From a virus, in UHGV virus genome UHGV-0170560: a DNA stretch of 39,563 nt; one strand, 5' to 3'. Shown here in pieces: positions 1,403-34,470 of this stretch (within the stretch, counting starts at the first letter, position 1; the number at the start of each line of letters is the position of its first letter). The translations under genes were made by a program, and so were the position numbers. The notes beneath the pieces are model-generated. The model was given only the letters and a program-made list of their open reading frames with translations, made no database searches and was not told the origin of the DNA.

Positions 1403-1885
1403 CTATCTTGTCAGGGTGTCATACTGTTTTTCGCAGACTCTTCCGGCTTCGGCTGCCCGGTCAGCATACTCTGCCAGTTGTCTGTTTCTCTCGAGAGATT
1501 TGCTGAGCACGTCGGCAAGCAAAACTCCGGTGTCTGCGGCTGACGTCCCAGCGCCGACAATGGCGTTATACTGCCTGAGCTGCTCACGGATGGCAACGAG
1601 CTGTTTCTGCAACCGGCCAGCGCGAGCGGCAGCATCAAGAGCATCATTGCGCGCCTGGTCGATCCTCTGCTGCGCTTCACGTTCATTGATCGCTTTCTCC
1701 TGTTCGTAGTGCTGACGAACTTTCTCATCTTCGGCTTTGCGCTCTTCCTTCGCCTGCACATACCCGGCGTCGTACTGACGGCTACCGTGCACATTCCAAG
1801 CAACAATTCCGGATATGACCAGAACAGCAAGCATCACCACGATAATTAACTGTTTCCAGTATGCTTTTGCGAATGCCCAGATCAT
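1403..1885 (-). CDS. Rz-like i-spanin (lysis)
   Basis: 160 aa; N-terminal TM helix then charged coiled-coil periplasmic domain; ATGA start/stop overlap with upstream endolysin; embedded lipoprotein ORF in +1 frame. Confidence 0.75.
   Translation of the reverse strand: MIWAFAKAYWKQLIIVVMLAVLVISGIVAWNVHGSRQYDAGYVQAKEERKAEDEKVRQHYEQEKAINEREAQQRIDQARNDALDAAARAGRLQKQLVAIREQLRQYNAIVGAGTSAADTGVLLADVLSKSLERNRQLAEYADRAAEAGRVCEKQYDTLTR
1411..1686 (-). CDS. Rz1-like o-spanin, embedded in Rz in alternate frame
   Basis: Internal Met followed by basic n-region and MMLLMLPLALAGC lipobox, Pro-rich mature part; start ambiguous (alternative ATGs at 1647/1644). Confidence 0.5.
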   Translation of the reverse strand: MNVKRSRGSTRRAMMLLMLPLALAGCRNSSLPSVSSSGSITPLSALGRQPQTPEFCLPTCSANLSRETDNWQSMLTGQPKPEESAKNSMTP

Positions 1886-2511
1886 ACCGCCAGCACCTTA
1901 CTGGCAGTGATGTACCGCGCGCGCCGGTCGTCGATGCCGTTCCGGCCACCATTGATAATCAGAGTTACACGTGCAATATCGCCGGTATACTTCATGCATC
2001 CTTTGCTGGCAAAGAACCACGCTGCGCTACGAGCCGCATATTCGTCATGCGCCAGCAATTCAGGGCTCTCCAGCAGGTCAACCTTCAGACCGTTTCCGCA
2101 ATCACGATAGTTATTCAAACCGGTTATCTGGATAAGCCCGCGCCCACGGTAATTCCAGCCATCGCCGGGAGCATTGTTACCCATGCGTTTGCTGTACACC
2201 AGATTGGCGATCGCTCGCTGGCGCTCGAGTGGCAATGGAGGTTCGCCTGCGCGGCGACCCAATGCGTTGGCCTGTCCCTGAGTGAGACGCCCAGCCCGAA
2301 CGAAGTTAGCCAGTCCGGTGACACTGTAGTTGAAATTCTCCTGCAACCGGATGAAACCACCAGACTCATGCCCGACCTGAGCAATAAACATTGCCTGATC
2401 TTCAGCTTTGCTGATACCAAACTCTTTCATCGCAGAAGTTATATGCGAGAACCAGCGTGCGGCCAGCGCCTCGCTAATACCAGCAGCTCGCTGGAATTGT
2501 TTAATCTCCAT
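1882..2511 (-). CDS. Endolysin, glycoside hydrolase family 19 (chitinase-like lysozyme)
   Basis: 209 aa; motifs QVGHESGGF and NYRGRGLIQITGLNNY match the GH19 catalytic signature; sits between holin and Rz. Confidence 0.85.
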   Translation of the reverse strand: MEIKQFQRAAGISEALAARWFSHITSAMKEFGISKAEDQAMFIAQVGHESGGFIRLQENFNYSVTGLANFVRAGRLTQGQANALGRRAGEPPLPLERQRAIANLVYSKRMGNNAPGDGWNYRGRGLIQITGLNNYRDCGNGLKVDLLESPELLAHDEYAARSAAWFFASKGCMKYTGDIARVTLIINGGRNGIDDRRARYITASKVLAV

Positions 2512-2809
2512 GTTTAGACCTCGTTATTTTGAAAATCTGAACGACGTTACCGCGAGTTTTAAGAACCGCAGCAAACATGACAGCGTTGATAATGACCTCA
2601 GATAAATCCACAGCCATTGGCGTGCGTAACCAGATTGCATAGACGACACGAACAGGAATACTGGCCGCAGCAACAATAAGGAAATAAGCAAGCCACCCTC
2701 CCCATCTTCGGTGTTGTGAACCGTTACGCCGGAATGTGACAACACGAATTGCTATGCCAGTACAAATAAGTGCATTGGTGATAAGCAAAAAATACTCATG
2801 CGTTACCAT
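2501..2809 (-). CDS. Holin-like small membrane protein
   Basis: 102 aa with 2-3 hydrophobic helices and charged C-terminus; overlaps endolysin start by 11 nt. Confidence 0.6.
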   Translation of the reverse strand: MVTHEYFLLITNALICTGIAIRVVTFRRNGSQHRRWGGWLAYFLIVAAASIPVRVVYAIWLRTPMAVDLSEVIINAVMFAAVLKTRGNVVQIFKITRSKHGD

Positions 2810-3155
2810 CGCCTTTTCTCCCCGGAATTAACTCGCGTGGATTATCGGAGCGGTGATAGAGCCAGATGCCAATTCGCACTGCGACGATTGCTGACACGAA
2901 TGCGCCGGCAGAGAAAACAATCCCTTTCTCGAAGGAATCCTGTGTGATGGTAGGGATCAGGCTGGCTATGCCGATAAGAATTGATGCTGCTGGTTTGTAA
3001 AAAAGAAGGCCGCAAAGAAAGCTGAGCATCGACAGGAGTACCCGGCGGCGGATCGGATATTCGACAGCAGAGGTAACAAAAATCACAGCTCCAGCAAGGG
3101 AGCCTAAAGCCACCTCAGGAGGTGCTCCTGCTATAACCGCCGCCAGAGAACTCAT
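2796..3155 (-). CDS. Holin/antiholin-like membrane protein
   Basis: 119 aa, several predicted TM helices, first gene of the lysis cassette; overlaps next gene by 14 nt. Confidence 0.55.
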   Translation of the reverse strand: MSSLAAVIAGAPPEVALGSLAGAVIFVTSAVEYPIRRRVLLSMLSFLCGLLFYKPAASILIGIASLIPTITQDSFEKGIVFSAGAFVSAIVAVRIGIWLYHRSDNPRELIPGRKGDGNA

Positions 3156-3315
3156 GCTAAGCCACTGATTTAAAGACTCATTGGTTATCTAAACTGACAT
3201 AAAAACCACCGTTTAATGTGCATGAAGAACCACCTTAGTATGGGGTTCACCATGCATATTAAACCATATATGAATAGTTATTACCTCTACATCAATTAAA
3301 TCACTATCATATAAA

Positions 3316-5901
3316 TTACATCTGGTTATTAATTTTCATTTCAATATTTTTAATGCGCTCAACCAATCCTCGCATAATGAAACGATCAAGTTCTTGATCG
3401 CGGAATTGCCACAAATCTCCTGCTTTCTTAACTAATTTTTTTTCACCAGTATTCACAGGAACAATGAATTTTTCACCATTTTGATCCGTAATTAACTCAT
3501 CTTTAATGACATCTTCATATACATCATCCCATTTGTCATACCCTATAAATCCATAATCTCGCCAGTCCAGGCCCTCATCCTCTAAAACAGCAATAACTGC
3601 CTGAACAGTGGTGCCAGAGTGCAACCTTTTAGAATCATCATCAATCCATGTCCAGAAACCTAGCAGATCAGCCACTTTAATTGCTGCATTAATTTCAGAT
3701 TTGGTGAATCCGCGAATCGGGTCTTTAAGACGACCATCTGAACTTGACTGGGTTCCTCCGGCAAAATAACCAATGTTATATCGTAGTGATGCGCTACCTA
3801 TATTTGAAGTGGCATCAGCTCCAGGAGTGATTCCCCCTGATGTTGCTATTTGCATTGCTGGAGTAGATCCAGACCCATCAGGTCTGAACTGTAATTGACC
3901 TACACTGTTGTATTGTGTTCTCATGAACCAAGATGTAGCATTGCCATTACTGAGCAGGCCAAGAATAGCATCAGAACCAGATGGAGCCGATACAGTGTAC
4001 ATTCCTGTCTTAGTGAGTGACGTCATGGTTTTTCCATCCTTGCTGACCAATAGTCTGTCGGAGCTTGCATCCATCATCACTTTCCATCCTGTAGACCCAT
4101 CAGCAGCATTCTTCGTAAACTGAATTGATGCGTCACCAATATTCCCATCAGAGCCAAGAATTGCAACGGTATAACCGCCTGCTGGGTCTTTACCCACAAC
4201 TCCAAATCTACCGTTTAGCGGATCGCCTGAAACTATTATTTTTACAGGAATCACTCCGGCAAAATTGTCATTAAATATCTGAGAAATATAATTCATGCGC
4301 ATGCCATAAAAACTAACACCTCTCTTTACATTCTCAGAACCAATAAAAGTCGGAATATCTGAATTTGTAATACCATAAGGTGATTGCTCTACCACACCAC
4401 CATAAAACTGGATGTTGGATGCGTGATCAAATTCTAATGCATGATTAGCTCTGGTTCTAAACTCACAGCCATAAAAGTAATGCCCATTTATTTCAGCGGA
4501 TGTCGCATTAACATCACCATCTATATAAAGGCATCGCCATGTGTTTGCGCTAGAGTAATAAGAAACAAGCTCTTCATGAGACATTGATGCGCGACTGTGG
4601 TGATCAAGGGTATAAATACCACATTTATCTACTCTAGTTCCGCTGAGACCATAACTTGCAGGCCCAGTGTTTGAACCAAGAATTGCTAAACCGACTCGCC
4701 CCATAGTTGACCCACCAGTAATGGTATTGTAATCAGGGTCATCGTTTCCTTGCTTTGACTGAATTATTGTACCTGCTTTTGAAAAGTATCCGAATACACA
4801 AACATCCTCCTGAAGATTTCTTGCAGAGTCATCGTAATAAACCCCACACTCATAATCTGCACGTTGGTCTTCATCAGGTTTTGTGTGATTACCGATGGAA
4901 TCATAACAAATCATGTCTTGAACCACGGCAATGCCTTTAAGGACAGATCCACTTGAACCATATTCTGGAGAAAGAACTCTCACGCAATATCGAACACTTG
5001 CGAAATGATCGTCTCTGTTATCTGTAGTAGCTATCTTTGTTCCTGCTCCAGAAAATATAAACGTAGCACCAGGCATATTTTCTTTTCTACCTTCAGCAAG
5101 AAAGAATTTGTCATCATCAGTACCAAATCCAAGAACAGGAGAACCATTACCAATGAATCGAAAATCACCAGGTATTTCTATACCATCAGAGAATCGATAA
5201 ACCCCATCAGGAACAAAAAAAGTTTTCTTTCCAGATGCAAGCAAAGCCTGCCACTGCGTTAAGTTGTCCGTTTTATAGTCACCTTTTAATCCAAAATCGG
5301 TTATGCTGACTGTATCTCGCATCTTATCCTGGAACGTTCGATATATCGCACCAGAACCATACTGAATAAACCAACCAAAACCACCAACAACTCCGGCGAT
5401 TGCAGCATCAACATAATTACGCATTGAGCGATTATTTACAGCATCCTGCTCAAGTGATGGATCTGCAAGGTTAGAAATTCTGTTTTGCTTTGCATCGTAA
5501 TATTTTGCAAGCAAAGATGGTTTCATCAATGCACGTCTGAACCACCCAAAACATTGCTGGATCAGCATCGTCAGGTAGTCAAAAGCATCTTCATGCACTT
5601 CGGGGAAAAATTTTCCCTGATTGCGAAGGTCTGTCTCCTGCACTACATCAAGCACACGATCTATCGTAATTCGCCATCCAGCAGCAAGCGGCGACGGAAG
5701 AACAACAGAACCGCCACTATAAGTGCCCGCCCCAGTTACCGTATAACCGGTATCCAGAACCAATTCTGTTACGTTCCCGTTCAGGTCAGACACCTGAACA
5801 ACCAGGTCGGATTTTTTGAAAATACGGAAGGTATACGGAAATGATGTCGTAGCGCCGTTACCGGTGTATTCGTTGTGGTCAACTTCGGTTGAGACCGTCA
5901 T
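3316..5901 (-). CDS. Tail fibre/tailspike with T7 gp17-like N-terminal adaptor domain and C-terminal intramolecular chaperone (peptidase S74-like) domain
   Basis: 861 aa; N-terminal ~110 aa resemble the T7 gp17 adaptor region by recollection; C-terminal ~140 aa begin with SSDGRLKD (S-D-x-R-x-K autoprocessing motif); central part AT-rich. Confidence 0.8.
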   Translation of the reverse strand: MTVSTEVDHNEYTGNGATTSFPYTFRIFKKSDLVVQVSDLNGNVTELVLDTGYTVTGAGTYSGGSVVLPSPLAAGWRITIDRVLDVVQETDLRNQGKFFPEVHEDAFDYLTMLIQQCFGWFRRALMKPSLLAKYYDAKQNRISNLADPSLEQDAVNNRSMRNYVDAAIAGVVGGFGWFIQYGSGAIYRTFQDKMRDTVSITDFGLKGDYKTDNLTQWQALLASGKKTFFVPDGVYRFSDGIEIPGDFRFIGNGSPVLGFGTDDDKFFLAEGRKENMPGATFIFSGAGTKIATTDNRDDHFASVRYCVRVLSPEYGSSGSVLKGIAVVQDMICYDSIGNHTKPDEDQRADYECGVYYDDSARNLQEDVCVFGYFSKAGTIIQSKQGNDDPDYNTITGGSTMGRVGLAILGSNTGPASYGLSGTRVDKCGIYTLDHHSRASMSHEELVSYYSSANTWRCLYIDGDVNATSAEINGHYFYGCEFRTRANHALEFDHASNIQFYGGVVEQSPYGITNSDIPTFIGSENVKRGVSFYGMRMNYISQIFNDNFAGVIPVKIIVSGDPLNGRFGVVGKDPAGGYTVAILGSDGNIGDASIQFTKNAADGSTGWKVMMDASSDRLLVSKDGKTMTSLTKTGMYTVSAPSGSDAILGLLSNGNATSWFMRTQYNSVGQLQFRPDGSGSTPAMQIATSGGITPGADATSNIGSASLRYNIGYFAGGTQSSSDGRLKDPIRGFTKSEINAAIKVADLLGFWTWIDDDSKRLHSGTTVQAVIAVLEDEGLDWRDYGFIGYDKWDDVYEDVIKDELITDQNGEKFIVPVNTGEKKLVKKAGDLWQFRDQELDRFIMRGLVERIKNIEMKINNQM

Positions 5902-6354: not shown

Positions 6355-6490
6355 GGTTTGCAATTACCAAGTGGAGTGCTTATATTTACCTTTGAGGTGA
6401 ATTTACATCGCACTCCTCTTATGCCATAGTAATCGGGCACTGGCAAAATCCAGTGCCGGGATTGGCGTCCCGGGTTACTAAGTGGCGCAT

Positions 6491-6514
6491 ACCACGCCAG
6501 ACGTGGTTTTTTTA
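6491..6514 (+). terminator. Rho-independent terminator-like hairpin
   Basis: Stem ACCACG/CGTGGT with loop CCAGA followed by TTTTTTT. Confidence 0.6.
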
Positions 6515-6669
6515 TGCGTTAAGCACAGCTATATCCGAATTATGGTGGGCTGGGCAGGGGTCCGAAAGGACGCCGGTACCACTTAGGCCGGTACGCCAAC
6601 CTTGTCCAGTTCACCACCAGTAATTGGCGTTGCGGTGGTGATTAAAATCACTAAGTGGAGATAACCACC

Positions 6670-22001: not shown

Positions 22002-22703
22002 TTATTTGCCATAGAGCACTTCGGCCGCACTACGCTGGCCTTCATTACCACCGGTGACCATGCCATCTTCAGACATCGCCTTTCCGATTTTCACGAACGT
22101 TTTAACCAGATCAGGGTGATTACCCAGCCCGGTGGTGTTCAGATATTCTTTGAGTTCAGGTGTCCCGAACTGGTCAAGCGCACGCTGTGCGGCGCTAAGG
22201 TTAGAAATCAACTTGTCGCCACCGATTTCTTTGTCAGCTTTTACATCAGCAGCCCACTGCTCGGTCGTTTTCTGCCAGGCTTCTGCCTGACGCTGCTGCA
22301 CACCTGCCAGAATCTTCGGATAAGCATCAACCAGCTTTTGCGCTTGCTCGTTGGTCAGGTTAAGGTCTCGCGCCACCGGCTCGAATTCCTTCAACGCTTC
22401 TGTATCCAGCTCTACGCCTTCGGCAGCCTGAAACTCGTACTTCTCAGGCGCACCATCTGGTTTATCGCCGTCCTTTTTTTCATCCTGCTTATCGTTTTCA
22501 GACTTTTTGTCATCAGTAGGTTTATCGCCATCAGCAACAGGTTGTGGCTTATCACCTTCCTGTTGTGATGGCTCACCAACTGGAGCAGGGTTATCACCTG
22601 CAGGCGCTGACGATTCTGACGCAGCCGGAGCTGCTCCACCATCGACTGGTTGCTCATTGCAAAGACGGCGATACAGCAAACGCTCAAATAAATTCATGAT
22701 CAC
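22002..22703 (-). CDS. Scaffolding protein
   Basis: 233 aa, acidic low-complexity Pro/Asp/Lys-rich middle and helical C-terminus, between portal and capsid. Confidence 0.65.
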   Translation of the reverse strand: MIMNLFERLLYRRLCNEQPVDGGAAPAASESSAPAGDNPAPVGEPSQQEGDKPQPVADGDKPTDDKKSENDKQDEKKDGDKPDGAPEKYEFQAAEGVELDTEALKEFEPVARDLNLTNEQAQKLVDAYPKILAGVQQRQAEAWQKTTEQWAADVKADKEIGGDKLISNLSAAQRALDQFGTPELKEYLNTTGLGNHPDLVKTFVKIGKAMSEDGMVTGGNEGQRSAAEVLYGK

Positions 22704-22996
22704 TCCTGTTCACTGGCCTCTTTGGCCATCTTCAAATACTGTTCAGGGCAATGCGCCATAACGCGCTGAAACAGTTCCAGCGCCAGATTGCGTTGCCCCT
22801 CATTAAATGCCATTGCCATAGCGTCCATCGGCGAGATAGCGGAAAACACACGGCCTTTCTCCAGCACCGACCAGACAACGCGACGCCCCTGTTCACTGCT
22901 CATGACAAAGCGAATGTCATCAATTTCACGCTGCGCCATGTCACGTTGCTTACGGGCGTTTTCTTCTTTCAGATGATCGTCTTCGTAATCTGTCAT
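22700..22996 (-). CDS. Hypothetical protein between portal and scaffold
   Basis: 98-aa ORF, overlap coupling at both ends. Confidence 0.5.
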   Translation of the reverse strand: MTDYEDDHLKEENARKQRDMAQREIDDIRFVMSSEQGRRVVWSVLEKGRVFSAISPMDAMAMAFNEGQRNLALELFQRVMAHCPEQYLKMAKEASEQE

Positions 22997-24672
22997 TGTG
23001 ATTGCCCACCCTGGCCACTAACTGCATTCGCCATAGCTGACAAAACACTCGGATCCGAAGTTTTAGCTTCGCTAAGCGTCTTGGCACCCTGTGCCGCCGC
23101 CATCCCCATCGCCATCATTTGTTGCTGCTGTTGCTGCTGTGCCCGTTGCTGGCGAGCCTGCTCAACCTGTTCCTGCGGAACAATGACGGTTGGAGACACT
23201 CCGGACATATCAGCGAATGCATCGATCGCCTGATCAACGTTGAGTTTGTCGAGAGCTTCTGGTTTCGCTTGCGCAAGTTGACCAATGAAGTTGACCGTGG
23301 ACGCCAGACTGGACAAGCCGATAGACTTCTGCGCCTGAGCCATGACGGAAATGTATTCGACCTTCAGGGGCATACCTTCCATCACGTCTGGCGGTGGCGG
23401 CAGCATGTTTTTACGCACCATCATCGAGAAAGCGCGGTCAATGAGAGGATTAAGACATTCGTCGTTCAGACGCTCCAGAACCGGCCCCAACATCAGAAGT
23501 TTTTCTTCTTTCATTTCGATCACCGCTTCAACAGGCATCGAGCGGGTATTGATGTTCTGCAACATCATGAACAGATCGACAAAGTAGGCGCTGTTAATGA
23601 TTTGACGAGTGTCCTGAATGTCTGCCACCAAATCTGCTGTACTGGGGTTAACCAGATAAGCAGGCCTGAAACCATCCTGACCAGTAATCTGATCGATATA
23701 CGTGATGTCGCCAGGAAGAAGGGAGGCACGCTGATTCTTGAGGGAAGTCGGAGCAACCATCGGCGGATTGGTGGCTTTATCAATCAACTGCGACTTGCGC
23801 TTCTGGAGAAGCTGCAATGCCTTAACAGGTCCAAGCGCCAGCATACCCGGGCATGATGATCCATAAACATCTTCGCCGTTAACTTCCCAGCGCGGAGCCA
23901 TAATTGGAAACTCATCGAATCCGGACTCACGCAACAACTTGTCGTTATCGCCGCCAACCTCGTAATAAACCGATTTGAATGGCTTGTTCTTGCTATCCAG
24001 CTTCGATGTATCGCGGTCAATGTTCGGGTAAACCGAATGCATCACTTCAATCCACTTCTCGTAGGTGCCGCTTTCCCACATGCTTTTTACGGATTCGCTG
24101 ACGTTATTTAGCCCGAACTCCTGAACAAGCTGACGAACAGTCATAGAGAACTTGCGAAAACAGGTGTCCACACTGCCACGAGGTGAGTTAGCCAGGTAGT
24201 AACTGCCTATCGGGAATGGCATTGTGCGAATGATGTCCTCGTCATCCTCCAGCACTGCCATTGCACCAGTGCTGTATGTGCCGAGGCTTCCGTATAACTG
24301 CGGCAGCGACTGATAGAGATTCGACTTATTGAACATATCGTTCATGCGGTTCTGCACCGCCTCAAGCCACAACTTAACAGGGCCATAATCCATCATTTCA
24401 GGATCTGGCGTAGCCAGGCGAAACCACGGACGCGCGGGGCTTGTGATGCCTGACATCATGCCGCTGGCGAGAGTGCGCGCCGCCATAGTCCCGGTCGAAT
24501 CAATAATGCGTGTATTGCGCCGATCGTTACGGTTGACCTCAGAAGTCAGAAAGCGGGAACCACGCGGGTTGATGTAATCACTCAACTCGCGCCAGTGCGG
24601 CTCGAACGACTGACGCTCGCTTTCAAGTTGTGCGAACTGTTTGTTCAATCGCTCTTTAGTTGTTTCCGCCAT
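22993..24672 (-). CDS. Portal protein (T7 gp8-like)
   Basis: 559 aa; C-terminal Q-rich/MAMGMAAAQG region resembles the T7 gp8 C-terminus by recollection; lies after the terminase region. Confidence 0.8.
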   Translation of the reverse strand: MAETTKERLNKQFAQLESERQSFEPHWRELSDYINPRGSRFLTSEVNRNDRRNTRIIDSTGTMAARTLASGMMSGITSPARPWFRLATPDPEMMDYGPVKLWLEAVQNRMNDMFNKSNLYQSLPQLYGSLGTYSTGAMAVLEDDEDIIRTMPFPIGSYYLANSPRGSVDTCFRKFSMTVRQLVQEFGLNNVSESVKSMWESGTYEKWIEVMHSVYPNIDRDTSKLDSKNKPFKSVYYEVGGDNDKLLRESGFDEFPIMAPRWEVNGEDVYGSSCPGMLALGPVKALQLLQKRKSQLIDKATNPPMVAPTSLKNQRASLLPGDITYIDQITGQDGFRPAYLVNPSTADLVADIQDTRQIINSAYFVDLFMMLQNINTRSMPVEAVIEMKEEKLLMLGPVLERLNDECLNPLIDRAFSMMVRKNMLPPPPDVMEGMPLKVEYISVMAQAQKSIGLSSLASTVNFIGQLAQAKPEALDKLNVDQAIDAFADMSGVSPTVIVPQEQVEQARQQRAQQQQQQQMMAMGMAAAQGAKTLSEAKTSDPSVLSAMANAVSGQGGQSQ

Positions 24673-24686
24673 TTCAATGACTCCGG

Positions 24687-24893
24687 TTACTGACCAAGTA
24701 GCGTTTTACCGCTGGTATTAGCGGTTGATGTGTCGCCCTGAGAACCGGTAAGCAGCGTAGAACTACGACCAGCAGCAGCGCGACGGCGACGAGTTTCTTC
24801 GTCGCGGGCATCAACAACGGCGGCATCCTGCTCCTGTGGTGCTGCCTGAACTTCTGGTGTTGCAGGCACTGATGGTGAGCTACCCATGCACAT
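24687..24893 (-). CDS. Hypothetical small Ala/Gln-rich protein upstream of portal
   Basis: 68 aa with GGAG RBS at 9-nt spacing; preferred over the overlapping 79-aa ORF, which would need a TTG start. Confidence 0.4.
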   Translation of the reverse strand: MCMGSSPSVPATPEVQAAPQEQDAAVVDARDEETRRRRAAAGRSSTLLTGSQGDTSTANTSGKTLLGQ

Positions 24894-25320: not shown

Positions 25321-25397
25321 GTGGCATTAGCTCAGTTGGACAGAGCAACCGCCTTCTAAGCGGTTGGCCGCAGGTTCGAATCCTGCATGCCACGCCA
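25321..25397 (+). tRNA. tRNA-Arg (anticodon UCU), CCA encoded
   Basis: Hand-folded cloverleaf: acceptor GTGGCAT/ATGCCAC, D-stem GCTC/GAGC, anticodon stem ACCGC/GCGGT with loop CTTCTAA, T-stem GCAGG/CCTGC with TTCGAAT loop; argU-like. Confidence 0.9.
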
Positions 25398-25895: not shown

Positions 25896-26177
25896 ATGAA
25901 ATTAAAACAGAAGATCGTTAATGCCTTTGTGAATTCAACACATGAGTGGAATATGGCAATGCACAATGCCATCGAGAGAAAAGTACATGAAGGATTTAAA
26001 GATACCTTCCCAAATGGACTGAAGGATCCAGAGGAAACAGAGGAAAGAATCGAGTCCATGCGCACATTCTATTACCAGCGAATGATGAATACAGCCTCCT
26101 TGCTTCTAACAGGCTCATCGCTAATCATCGCTTTAATAGCTCTGCTTGTGGCAATGGTCTCAATCCACTATGCATAG
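25896..26177 (+). CDS. Hypothetical small C-terminally membrane-anchored protein (moron)
   Basis: 93 aa, AT-rich, C-terminal TM helix; converges on the TerL 3' end. Confidence 0.5.
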   Translation: MKLKQKIVNAFVNSTHEWNMAMHNAIERKVHEGFKDTFPNGLKDPEETEERIESMRTFYYQRMMNTASLLLTGSSLIIALIALLVAMVSIHYA

Positions 26178-27643
26178 GGGTCGTAATCTGTGACCGCTTT
26201 CCCCTGCTGGCTCTCCTGACCAAGAATGCGCAGGCGCTTCGTAACCGGGAACGCAAACGTCAGCAGTAGCGCATCGCCTTTACCCGGCGAACGCCCAAGC
26301 CGCTCCTTGATATCTTCCTTCGGTTCGATAACGATTTTACCGTCCACGCGAACTTTGTACTCTGCCGCCGACAGGTCGTCCGCTGTTTCCTGGTCATCCA
26401 GCATGCCGCCCAGCCTCAGCCATGTCTTGCATGAGTTGAACATCTCCCCACGCTTGTTAAGCATCTGCGGGTCAGTAGACGCGCCACCGAACGGAACAAG
26501 TTGCCATGTACGCCCCCAACCGTCACCGATTGACTTCAGACCGGTACCGTAACCGAAGTCGATGAACACCGCGTCAGCCTGGTACTGGTCTTCAAAGTCA
26601 GCGATACGCTTCGCCATAATCAGATCGTCGGTGGTCTTGTTACCAGTCCATAGCACCTTACTGTGCAGCCCCTGCCGCAGGTATATCACCGCGTCATCAA
26701 CGCCGGAGTATGCAGGGTCAACGCCGATTATCACCGGAGCATGTGCAACCTGCGCAGCAGTTACCACCCGTTTCATTGCCTCGTCAGTAAGTCCGGTAGG
26801 GATAAACTGCAATTCAGATGCATCCGGGAATATGCCGCGCACACGGATTTTAACGAAGTCGCTGTCTTCCCCGTAGTCATCAACCCATTTCTGCAACTGC
26901 TGTTTGTTAGTGCCTTCCACCGTCCGGCTGTCAATCTGCGCAGTTTTCCAGCGGTGTTTATATTTGCGGAAACATTCGCGGAAACGACCGGTATTACGCG
27001 TCGGGTTCCCGAACGCCACCCAGATGATTTCGGTGTCTTCGTCCGTCAGCGCACCCTCTGCTACCTCCCACACCAGATCCGCAATGTTCGACGCTTCATC
27101 GAATACCACGATGATGCGTTTGCGCTCGTTGTGTAGTCCGGCGAATGCCTCAGTGTTGTGCTCAGACCAGGGGATTGCGTCAGCTCGCCACCGCTTGTCG
27201 TGCCCAGGGTCATTGCTGTACATCGCGGTAGCGGTACAGGTAAACCAGTCTTTCGTGATAGCAAGGTTCGACCACTTGATAATTTCCGGCCAGGTCTTCG
27301 TTCGTAGCTGGTTGTCGGTGTTGGCGGTCACCACGACCTTACAATCCTCGCAAGTGGACATGCCCCAGTTGATCAGCATTGAGATGAATGCTGATTTACC
27401 AATACCGTGACCAGAAGCACGTGCCAGCATAATCGGCTGATAGCGCGTCTCTGGATTCTGCAGGTGGTCACGTATCTCTCGGAACGCATCAGCCTGCCAC
27501 TGACGTGGGCCGGTAGCATGTGCCAGTTCAGTCCCCTCTTCCCCCCACGGGAACGCATAGAGGGCATAGCCAAGCGGATCGTGAGTGAACCCTGCAATAT
27601 CCTCGATTAACTGCTCTTCAGGAGATAACGCTGTATCTGTCAC
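26168..27643 (-). CDS. Terminase large subunit
   Basis: 491 aa; Walker A-like GHGIGKS, Walker B-like IIVVFDEAS, C-terminal nuclease-type acidic motifs; ATGA-coupled to TerS. Confidence 0.85.
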   Translation of the reverse strand: MTDTALSPEEQLIEDIAGFTHDPLGYALYAFPWGEEGTELAHATGPRQWQADAFREIRDHLQNPETRYQPIMLARASGHGIGKSAFISMLINWGMSTCEDCKVVVTANTDNQLRTKTWPEIIKWSNLAITKDWFTCTATAMYSNDPGHDKRWRADAIPWSEHNTEAFAGLHNERKRIIVVFDEASNIADLVWEVAEGALTDEDTEIIWVAFGNPTRNTGRFRECFRKYKHRWKTAQIDSRTVEGTNKQQLQKWVDDYGEDSDFVKIRVRGIFPDASELQFIPTGLTDEAMKRVVTAAQVAHAPVIIGVDPAYSGVDDAVIYLRQGLHSKVLWTGNKTTDDLIMAKRIADFEDQYQADAVFIDFGYGTGLKSIGDGWGRTWQLVPFGGASTDPQMLNKRGEMFNSCKTWLRLGGMLDDQETADDLSAAEYKVRVDGKIVIEPKEDIKERLGRSPGKGDALLLTFAFPVTKRLRILGQESQQGKAVTDYDPYA

Positions 27644-32872: not shown

Positions 32873-33673
32873 TTACTTGATAAATCCTGCCGCCTTTCCC
32901 CGCCTGTATTCCTCCATCAGCCACTGCGCCGGTGTTATTCCCCCAAGGGTGGCGGCGTTAGGCATGCACCCGAAACTTCGCCCTGGTGGATGGTAAACGT
33001 CTCTCCCTGTGTCCGGAGGCGTACTCATGGGTTCTGGCTTTGCCTGTATGCTGATCACCGGATCGGGTATCTGCTGTCCGGAAGCCACCTTTTTCGCCCA
33101 ATCATCGAGCAGCCTGCGCGCGTGTTTCTCAACCTCAATCTCGCTAAGCTGGCGCTGATACATTGCACGGCGGGTATCACATACGACCCAGTACATAACC
33201 GGATGTCGCCACGGGAATCTTTCCGGACCACCAGGATATAAACTTTTTTCCTTGCTGTACCGGTGAAACTCCGCCATCACATCGTCAATGGTGATGCCAA
33301 GAACCATCTTGCTGTCTTTACACCACTTGATGAATTGCCCTGGCGACGGCCAGAACGGAGATTCACTGGCGCGGGCGTGGCGCATACCAGCAGAAACCTG
33401 TTCACGGGTTCGGATCCCACCTTCGGCAAACGCAGCAATCCACTGCTGTTTTGCAGCGACTTCCTGCTCTGGCGTCTTCAGGTTGGTTACCACTGCCGCC
33501 GGAAACAGTTGTTTCAGCTGTTTGAAAAGGGCATCAACAAGCCTCTCTGCTGACATGTTCACCACATTGTCATTGTTGACGTACTGATGCTCATAACCTG
33601 ACATGCGAGAAAGGGCTTCTCCGTCACGGTTTTGTATCGCGGTAAAAACGTTGTTCACAAGAAATCCTCCCAC
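32873..33673 (-). CDS. Replication protein P-like (helicase loader)
   Basis: 266 aa; QWIAAFAEGGIRTREQVSAGMRHARASESPFWPSPGQFIKWCKD closely parallels lambda P by recollection. Confidence 0.8.
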   Translation of the reverse strand: MGGFLVNNVFTAIQNRDGEALSRMSGYEHQYVNNDNVVNMSAERLVDALFKQLKQLFPAAVVTNLKTPEQEVAAKQQWIAAFAEGGIRTREQVSAGMRHARASESPFWPSPGQFIKWCKDSKMVLGITIDDVMAEFHRYSKEKSLYPGGPERFPWRHPVMYWVVCDTRRAMYQRQLSEIEVEKHARRLLDDWAKKVASGQQIPDPVISIQAKPEPMSTPPDTGRDVYHPPGRSFGCMPNAATLGGITPAQWLMEEYRRGKAAGFIK

Positions 33674-34470
33674 GCTTCAGGGCTGTTCCAGTGCGGAACG
33701 TTGTTATCAGGTAATGTTGATTGCTTCTGTCTGCTAATCTGCAGCCGCCTTGCCAGCTTCTGCTCCCACTGTGCCTGATGGTATGCCTTACCCTCAGCCA
33801 TCCAGTAAATTCTGAACTCTGCAAGTTCCTGTGCCGTTGGCAGACTGTCCAGGTAGATTCCCTGCAATGAGCTTTTTCGAAGAAAGTCATCTGATGGCTG
33901 CCATTGTTCATGCATGACAAATTTGCCTAATTGCCCTGGCCCACCAGGAGGAACAAAGTTATTCATCACGGCGTTGTTTGCGCCGGGGTCATGAGGCACA
34001 GAATCCCCGGTTTTTGTCCTGCTCTCCCTCTCTTGGTTAAATGACTGGTTATATGACTGGTTCTGGATCCCGTTTTTGGGATCATTCAACATCCCGTTTT
34101 TGGGATCATTCAACATCCCGTTTTTGGGTATATTCCCGTTTTCGGGAACATTACCGTTTTCGGGTTCATTACCCCCCTCCCGGTTGCCTTTAATGTTCCC
34201 GTTTTTGGTTATATTAAGAGAGAAAACCCGCACTCTTTTCGTCGCTCCCTTTCTCTCTCCGGTATCTAAAATAAGCCCCATTTTCATGAGCGATATAAGC
34301 CCGGCCTGCACGGTTTTTTTATTCAGGCAAGTGTCTTTAACGAGGCGTTCTATGCTGGGGTAGCAGAGGTTATATTCATCGGCTCTGTCAGCCATCGAGA
34401 GCAGTATGAGCTTTAATGACGAGCTACCTGGATCTGTCTCCCAGGCCCAATCTGTTGCATGTCTGCTCAT
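33655..34470 (-). CDS. Replication initiator O-like protein (iterons inside the gene)
   Basis: 271 aa; N-terminal HTH-like domain; internal NGN.P.NG repeat region encoded by the iteron array; overlaps the P-like gene. Confidence 0.75.
   Translation of the reverse strand: MSRHATDWAWETDPGSSSLKLILLSMADRADEYNLCYPSIERLVKDTCLNKKTVQAGLISLMKMGLILDTGERKGATKRVRVFSLNITKNGNIKGNREGGNEPENGNVPENGNIPKNGMLNDPKNGMLNDPKNGIQNQSYNQSFNQERESRTKTGDSVPHDPGANNAVMNNFVPPGGPGQLGKFVMHEQWQPSDDFLRKSSLQGIYLDSLPTAQELAEFRIYWMAEGKAYHQAQWEQKLARRLQISRQKQSTLPDNNVPHWNSPEAWEDFL
34066..34215. repeat. Iteron array, probable replication origin within the O-like gene
   Basis: Two perfect 24-bp copies ATCCCGTTTTTGGGATCATTCAAC (34066-34089, 34090-34113) plus 3-4 degenerate copies. 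Confidence 0.75.

Follow-up and report, generated by a model that had tools for sequence, protein, structure and literature searches.

This locus raises the question whether a run of seven glutamines (Q7) near the end of a phage portal protein, which is encoded by a short CTG/TTG-rich stretch, reflects an unstable DNA repeat that differs between isolates or a part of the protein that is kept by selection. The window, i.e., the whole stretch of 39,563 nucleotides that was analyzed (UHGV virus genome UHGV-0170560), represents a temperate E. coli podophage of the phiV10/epsilon15 type (Uetakevirus).

The portal gene and its glutamine tract

The earlier note had assigned the minus-strand gene carrying the tract to the portal, and this assignment is well founded. 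The open reading frame matches the Pfam family PF12236 (Head-tail_con) with 624.5 bits (cutoff 27; E 1.3e-187) over residues 7-496 and over profile positions 2-488 of 489, and it matches the head-tail adaptor family phrog_332 with an E-value of 2e-253. As a test of the fold, the AlphaFold model of the protein was compared by Foldseek, which returned a probability of 1.00 for 8ck0, 9efk, 8i4m and the T7 entries 6qwp, 7bou and 9jyz. At the DNA level the gene shares 98-99% identity with its counterparts in phiV10, vB_EcoP_ZX5 and TL-2011b, among others, and the gene is present as prophage in about one tenth of the complete E. coli genomes (517-520 of 5426). The gene and its tract are composed as follows:

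22993 to 24672, minus strand: portal (head-to-tail connector) gene, a 559-aa open reading frame with PF12236, phrog_332 and AlphaFold/Foldseek portal matches
23185 to 24654, minus strand: Pfam Head-tail_con region, residues 7-496, comprising clip, stem, wing and crown
23119 to 23139, minus strand: seven glutamine codons, Gln512-Gln518, CAG CAG CAA CAG CAG CAA CAA
23122 to 23139, no strand given: two exact tandem copies (23122-23130 and 23131-23139) of the 9-bp unit TTGCTGCTG, found with Tandem Repeats Finder

The portal gene lies in a morphogenesis module that is encoded entirely on the minus strand and contains a 491-aa open reading frame, the portal, a Bbp19-like protein, a 233-aa open reading frame and the GP7 major capsid protein. 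The 491-aa frame (26168-27643, minus strand) has the length and position of the annotated terminase large subunit of relatives, and the 233-aa frame is annotated as protease/peptidase in relatives. Upstream of the portal a 68-aa open reading frame (24687-24893) belongs to phrog_831, to which no function is assigned. It starts with MC... like T7 gp6.7 and was considered as a gp6.7 homologue, which was rejected at a BLASTP E-value of 2.0 and with no Pfam match. In public records two anomalies of portal annotation were seen: one is the portal of PAS61 with 735 aa, the other a portal-capsid fusion of 673 aa. Elsewhere the window encodes a tRNA-Arg(TCT) at 25321-25397, shows Rfam matches to isrK and C4 antisense RNA at 6437-6621 and contains iteron-like repeats at 34034-34173, within a 271-aa open reading frame.

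On the plus strand the tract reads TTGTTGCTGCTGTTGCTGCTG (23119-23139). The window was shuffled 100 times with its dinucleotides preserved and no shuffle gave a (YTG)7 match, so the tract exceeds what is expected by chance. Q7 is the longest run of a single amino acid in the window, and the two other runs of seven residues come from these 21 bases as well, translated in other frames of the opposite strand. The description of a run of seven glutamines within a Q-rich tail in the earlier note holds, as 25% (16/63) of the residues past the Pfam domain are glutamine versus 6.8% in the whole portal. Its placement at the portal C-terminus is right insofar as the tract lies near the end of the protein, and it has to be corrected insofar as 41 residues follow. 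Similarly, a short CTG/TTG repeat is present, but its trinucleotides are not uniform: at most two identical codons stand side by side, the 9-bp unit present in two copies is the only exact repeat, and Tandem Repeats Finder reported a period of 9 with 2.3 copies at 23120-23140. An enrichment of CAA (three of seven tract codons versus 7 of the 31 other glutamine codons of the gene) was considered as a sign of selection against pure CAG and was discarded as too weak.

A predicted helix past the crown and its proposed counterparts in other portals

The portal was modeled as monomer by AlphaFold2 with an alignment of 132 sequences (pLDDT 90.5, pTM 0.84). In this model Gln512-518 is located in the middle of a single predicted helix spanning residues 500-535, which comes after the crown helices H443-469, H471-476 and H479-490 and for which the mean pLDDT amounts to 92 (501-510), 94 (511-520) and 85 (521-530). 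The last 25-30 residues are of low confidence (pLDDT 51-62).

23068 to 23175, minus strand: predicted 36-residue alpha-helix, residues 500-535 (DSSP on the AlphaFold model), proposed equivalent of alpha13 of T7 gp8
23017 to 23049, minus strand: predicted short last helix, residues 542-552, of low confidence (pLDDT about 59), possible equivalent of T7 alpha14

The top Foldseek matches are the portals of Carin1 (8ck0; E 1e-47, TMt 0.92), LME-1, T7 (gp8) and P-SCSP1u. In T7 gp8, clip, stem, wing and crown (428-492) are followed by a C-terminal helical barrel (PMC7196576). The barrel consists of twelve alpha13 helices of about 40 Å length and an alpha14 rim in contact with the internal core, and the portals of procapsids and of capsid II lack it (PMC7196576). 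The barrel of mature T7 is surrounded by gp6.7 and gp14, which fasten the core to it, and it collapses on ejection (PMC11784390). The number of residues modeled per T7 chain, 525-526 in the mature and 429-431 in the DNA-ejected state, is consistent with a barrel that is present in the mature virion and collapsed on ejection.

T7 gp8 and the portal studied here belong to the same PF12236 family and share the fold, at an overall identity of only 14-17%. An hhalign alignment of the family profile with T7 gp8 pairs query residues 11-500 with T7 residues 15-484 and stops at query residue 500, without reaching the barrel helix. Query residue 500 falls on T7 residue 484, which still lies in the T7 crown (428-492), so that helix 500-535 matches the T7 barrel helix in position. 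In both proteins the helix begins directly past the crown and is rich in Gln, Met and Ala, the T7 tail TEEQKQQKMAQQSMQMGM resembles PQEQVEQARQQRAQQQQQQQMMAMGM of the present portal with the common motif M-x-MGM, and a second short helix is located near the C-terminus. The two differ in that T7 has no homopolymer run and in that the distance from the TEEQ/PQEQ anchor to MGM is 18 residues in T7 and 26 here, i.e., 8 residues longer. We propose, by position and composition and not by alignment, that helix 500-535 is the equivalent of T7 alpha13; residues 542-552 may likewise correspond to T7 alpha14, the core-contacting rim, a match suggested by the model and not by an alignment. The barrel is demonstrated in T7, whereas for the present portal we infer it from the homologues, and we likewise infer its contacts with DNA or core as well as any role that is specific to the glutamines.

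The closest solved structure is the portal of Carin1 (8ck0), to which phmmer aligns residues 2-547 (E 8e-179) and Foldseek assigns 47% identity (TMt 0.92). It contains the same segment, RAQQQQQAQAMEMAQQAAQGAKLLSE, at identical length, with the difference that QQQQQAQ, i.e., a run of five glutamines broken by alanine, stands in place of Q7. In the 8ck0 chain 478 of 556 residues are modeled, with about 78 missing somewhere in the chain. A literature search on 8CK0, Carin1 and glutamine-rich portals returned no relevant publication. The Salmonella phage epsilon15, the type species of Uetakevirus, belongs to the same genus and has the same gene order; its virion has a dodecameric portal ring at one capsid vertex, seen at about 7 Å, and an internal core that tops the portal (PMC12391199). 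Its portal gp4 has the same tail length and the same flanking motifs, RA-x7-AMAMGQAAAQGAKTLSE, whereas the seven positions read KQAQAAQ with no glutamine run, which shows that the run itself is dispensable. In the distant homologue gp16 of the cyanophage P-SCSP1u, phmmer aligns the tract with QQAQQQQ in the barrel region EQQAQQQQLLETGI, a very distant match (E 2e-5). The P-SCSP1u barrel lines the DNA channel and was described as flexible (PMC10575957). It is longer and contains a proline ring ("valve S"), which was not identified in the present portal.

We consider it probable that Q7 is the local extreme of a conserved Gln/Ala/Met-rich helix that follows the portal crown, with selection acting on the protein and the repeat being a by-product. 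Judged from the homologues T7 gp8 and P-SCSP1u gp16, a C-terminal helical barrel would be built from twelve copies of helix 500-535. The barrels of these homologues extend the DNA channel into the capsid, carry the internal core (ejection) proteins and are ordered only in the DNA-filled virion. Seven glutamines cover two helical turns, and in a dodecamer they would form a belt of 84 glutamines on every side of the helices, facing the lumen, the neighboring helices and the exterior. Selection would then act on the length of the helix and on polar, helix-forming side chains and not on the DNA repeat, which would arise as a by-product of there being only two glutamine codons.

Conservation of the segment and a possible role of its glutamines

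Synonymous CAA/CAG spellings of Q7 were found in ten forms, every one of seven codons. In a set of 85 complete portal genes, with 76 distinct DNA sequences, the amino acids of the tract are invariant and two of its codons are synonymously variable. Of the 29 helix codons, 7 have synonymous and 4 amino-acid variation, nearly all singletons; in the core of 499 codons the corresponding numbers are 161 and 59. Purifying selection in the helix is comparable with that in the remainder of the portal gene. Variants other than Q7 are, within the clade, substitutions at constant length, and substituted tracts in relatives include DQAKQQQ, QKQQQQQ, LQQQQQQ, QQQKQQQ, QQLQQQR, KQIQQQQ and others.

The pattern extends to a family-wide set of 146 representatives at 40-50% identity. 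In this set glutamine ranks first in six of the seven tract columns (0.40-0.63) and alanine second, and the segment R510-K531 contains 27% Gln and 37% Ala, compared with 5.7% and 9.3% in the whole proteins. The conserved flanking residues are R507, R510, A511, A527, A530, K531 and L533, and the R510-K531 segment has a length of 20 residues in 74 of 98 anchored sequences (76%). The longest glutamine run within it ranges from 1 to 7 across the representatives, so Q7 is the extreme of a continuum and no isolated oddity.

The same region could be read as a neutral low-complexity tail, in which the C-terminal 60 residues are flexible and largely disordered and the glutamine richness results from mutational or compositional drift. 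This reading would accommodate the low pLDDT of the last 25-30 residues, the roughly 78 residues that are unmodeled in 8ck0, the persistence of alleles with four glutamines (Q4; described below) and the report that the T7 barrel is dispensable for DNA packaging (PMC7196576), as well as the fact that across the family Gln, Ala, Met, Lys and Glu replace one another freely in the tract. It is at odds with the spacing kept in 76% of the anchored representatives between conserved residues on either side, with the confident helix prediction all through the tract, with a purifying selection similar to that of the rest of the gene and with the finding that the homologous segments of T7 and P-SCSP1u are ordered barrels in virions. 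We therefore regard drift in a disordered tail as unlikely, though of the alternatives it keeps the most of its appeal.

It might also be assumed that the glutamines themselves are the functional element, e.g., that the belt acts as a hydrogen-bonded polar zipper that would hold the barrel together only in the presence of DNA or core proteins, and that Q4 shortens the helices. If this were true, each helix of a Q4 portal would be about 4.5 Å shorter than in Q7 and its distal half would be re-phased, which would alter core docking, DNA retention or ejection, and the tract would be a natural handle for testing the role of the T7-type portal barrel. The sequence KQAQAAQ of epsilon15 and the persisting Q4 alleles argue that glutamine is not essential at these positions and lend little support to a mechanism that is specific for glutamine, so that a dedicated function of the belt, be it as polar zipper or in the sensing of DNA, appears improbable. 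The reading as local extreme of a helix under selection for length and polarity is compatible with substitutions at constant length.

Length of the tract among isolates

The tract was reported in the earlier note as slippage-prone and as possibly variable in length between isolates, and a comparison of repeat length across related genomes and within reads was named beforehand as the check, with an invariant length as the outcome that would contradict it. Across isolates the length is almost invariant, i.e., very close to this contradicting outcome. A query of 54 nt across the tract was designed so that any insertion or deletion lowers the identity below 95%, and 518 of 523 records of complete E. 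coli genomes matched it at 95% or more (at most two mismatches and no indel). The remaining records fell at 90-95% (one, compatible with three substitutions or, at most, an indel of 3 nt), at 80-90% (one) and at 60-80% (three); the lowest-ranked one, in the 60-80% band, is a divergent lineage of Klebsiella type that has Q7 in another codon spelling. The alignments of the 14 close phage relatives all cover the complete gene of 1680 bases, with a span of exactly 1680 bases of the record in all except PAS61, and in each of the 60 E. coli prophage copies sampled the region around the tract has exactly 408 of 408 bases.

In IMG/VR, 119 of the 120 contigs among the matches listed contain the 21-nt tract, and dedicated scans of the whole of IMG/VR retrieved two shorter and no longer alleles, compared with at least 119 standard ones. 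Metagenome scans returned neither shorter nor longer alleles, zeros without a denominator as standard alleles were uncounted there. A degenerate scan with the downstream motif MGMAAAQGAK as anchor widened the sample of portal loci by Klebsiella, Kluyvera, Citrobacter, Buttiauxella, Scandinavium and further lineages. The sample from several genera comprises 163 portal loci, of which 160 are collinear and the three exceptions are Q4 loci; expansions of the tract were found neither in IMG/VR nor in the metagenome or portal-locus sets.

The Q4 alleles of the three loci, L026, L121 and L127, read TTGTTGCTGCTG. They have lost one 9-bp copy, in frame and with the portal reading frame intact. In the E. 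coli genomes a query for the short junction had exactly one match, strain 214-4, with the same sequence TTGTTGCTGCTG, and the locus of this strain is identical to L026 over 1500 bases. Over 1500 flanking bases L026 and L127 are separated from L121 by 21 differences, and each of them has Q7 neighbors that are closer to it, which indicates that the 9-bp loss arose independently at least twice. Q4 persists in two prophage lineages. Slippage or deletion between short repeats can thus occur at the tract, but rarely and not in steps of one trinucleotide; the variation seen is the loss of one 9-bp unit in two lineages.

The tract was compared with contingency loci of bacteria and phages, with which it shares a tandem repeat inside a coding sequence and an observed copy change of one unit. 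It differs from them in that only two copies are present, the unit is in frame, no expansions were seen and more than 99% of isolates are equal in length; frequent copy-number differences among close isolates, which would mark a contingency locus, were not found. A slippage-prone simple repeat that varies between isolates, possibly tuning or switching the portal in the manner of such a locus, would account for the perfect 9-bp tandem duplication and for its exact loss on at least two occasions. Hypermutable simple-sequence repeats have many perfect copies of a short unit, whereas here 2.3 copies of a 9-bp unit with never more than two identical codons in succession are present, and for hypermutability the tract is too short and has too many interruptions. 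Furthermore, Q4 was seen in one E. coli genome only, and in the commonest IMG/VR allele (66 of the 120 contigs among the matches listed) the 9-bp repeat is interrupted by a synonymous change; on/off switching is impossible with a unit that is a multiple of three. At the level of isolates this reading is close to refuted and we judge it very improbable. A nucleic-acid signal, e.g., a structured RNA, a binding site or an overlapping gene (the 245-aa open reading frame at 23119-23856, plus strand, which begins exactly at the tract), is hardly conceivable. The ten synonymous spellings retain glutamine while the nucleotides vary, whereas a DNA or RNA signal or a plus-strand frame (poly-Leu/Cys) would lead one to expect the reverse. 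The plus-strand open reading frame lies entirely within the strongly supported portal gene, and Rfam has no match at the tract.

A known protein and a known structural element make the Q7 tract ordinary. The portal was already well annotated and the helical barrel of T7-type portals was already described, so by itself the finding is minor. It teaches on the negative side that a conspicuous run of glutamines in the structural gene of a phage marks no variable locus; seven codons are kept through ten synonymous spellings. On the positive side, the richness of the helix in Gln and Ala and its fixed length are conserved from the present clade to T7 and the cyanophages, and the natural Q4 allele of E. 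coli strain 214-4 could be used in experiments on the length of the barrel.

Sequence around the portal gene

The Gln codons of the portal gene are adjoined by a second short repeat, and further features lie on either side of the portal:

22002-22703, minus strand: 233-aa ORF, acidic and rich in Lys, Asp and Glu, between the Bbp19-like and major capsid genes
23098-23116, plus strand: 6-bp repeat CGCCAT, 3.2 copies, adjoining the Gln codons
24687-24893, minus strand: 68-aa ORF (phrog_831), directly upstream of the portal
25321-25397, plus strand: tRNA-Arg, anticodon TCT, in the stretch separating the terminase gene from the portal operon

The CGCCAT repeat encodes the Met/Ala stretch MAMGMA of the portal. 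The motif M-x-MGM is common to this portal and to the barrel helix of T7 gp8, in which it reads MQMGM; this shared occurrence may mean that the barrel helix has conserved the motif since ancient times. The 68-aa ORF is by position and size the counterpart of epsilon15 gp3, and its N-terminus (MCMGSSPS...) is reminiscent of that of T7 gp6.7 (MCFSPKIK...), a small protein wrapping the T7 portal barrel; a relationship to gp6.7 is unsupported, with a BLASTP E-value of 2.0 and no Pfam match. The 233-aa ORF likewise has no Pfam match and is annotated in relatives as 'putative endoprotease', 'peptidase' or 'protease', while its position and composition indicate that it may be a scaffolding protein rather than a protease. 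Both the terminase gene and the portal operon lie on the other strand from the tRNA-Arg(TCT), and the same tRNA is annotated in the prophage of E. coli strain 214-4 (5208-5284 of its portal locus, L127).

Portal records of unusual length

The portal of Escherichia phage vB_EcoP_PAS61 is annotated with 735 instead of 559 aa (1501-3708 of its portal locus L122, corresponding to OQ921333.1 15937-18144). Its residues 1-293 match residues 1-300 of the portal studied here at 87%, and its residues 250-735 match residues 74-559 at 99%. Part of the protein is thus duplicated internally, one of the copies being divergent; the arrangement is a genuine mosaic or else an artefact of assembly. The NCBI E. 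coli 'portal protein' P0016 (673 aa) consists of portal residues 1-490 fused to a C-terminal portion containing the major capsid protein domain (PF12236 and PF20911), lacking the entire barrel helix and the genes between portal and major capsid, and P0122 (366 aa) is a portal without residues about 230-404. Both are probably derived from degraded prophages or misassemblies.

Possible control regions and prophage occurrence

Further elements were found distant from the portal:

6437-6513, plus strand: isrK Hfq-binding RNA match (Rfam, 67.7 bits, above the gathering score)
6538-6621, plus strand: C4 antisense RNA match (Rfam, 66 bits, above the gathering score)
34034-34173, within a minus-strand ORF: tandem-repeat cluster, with repeat-like sequence on to about 34215

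The adjoining isrK and C4 matches (6437-6621) suggest that this phage has a region of the P1/P7 type for antisense immunity or antirepressor control. The repeat cluster, enclosed by a 271-aa ORF (33655..34470, minus strand), comprises a 24-bp unit ATCCCGTTTTTGGGATCATTCAAC (2.6 copies, 100% identity), an 18-bp unit CCGTTTTCGGGTACATTA (3.1 copies) and a 12-bp unit (2.4 copies), each unit containing the small inverted repeat CCC-GTTTTT-GGG. Lambda O is a replication-initiator gene with origin iterons inside, and by analogy the cluster looks like origin iterons within what we presume to be a replication-initiator gene.

The portal tail is present at 92-99% identity in 517-520 of 5426 complete E. 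coli genomes, a few of which carry two copies, and three of its places are on plasmids. This phage type is a very common E. coli prophage.
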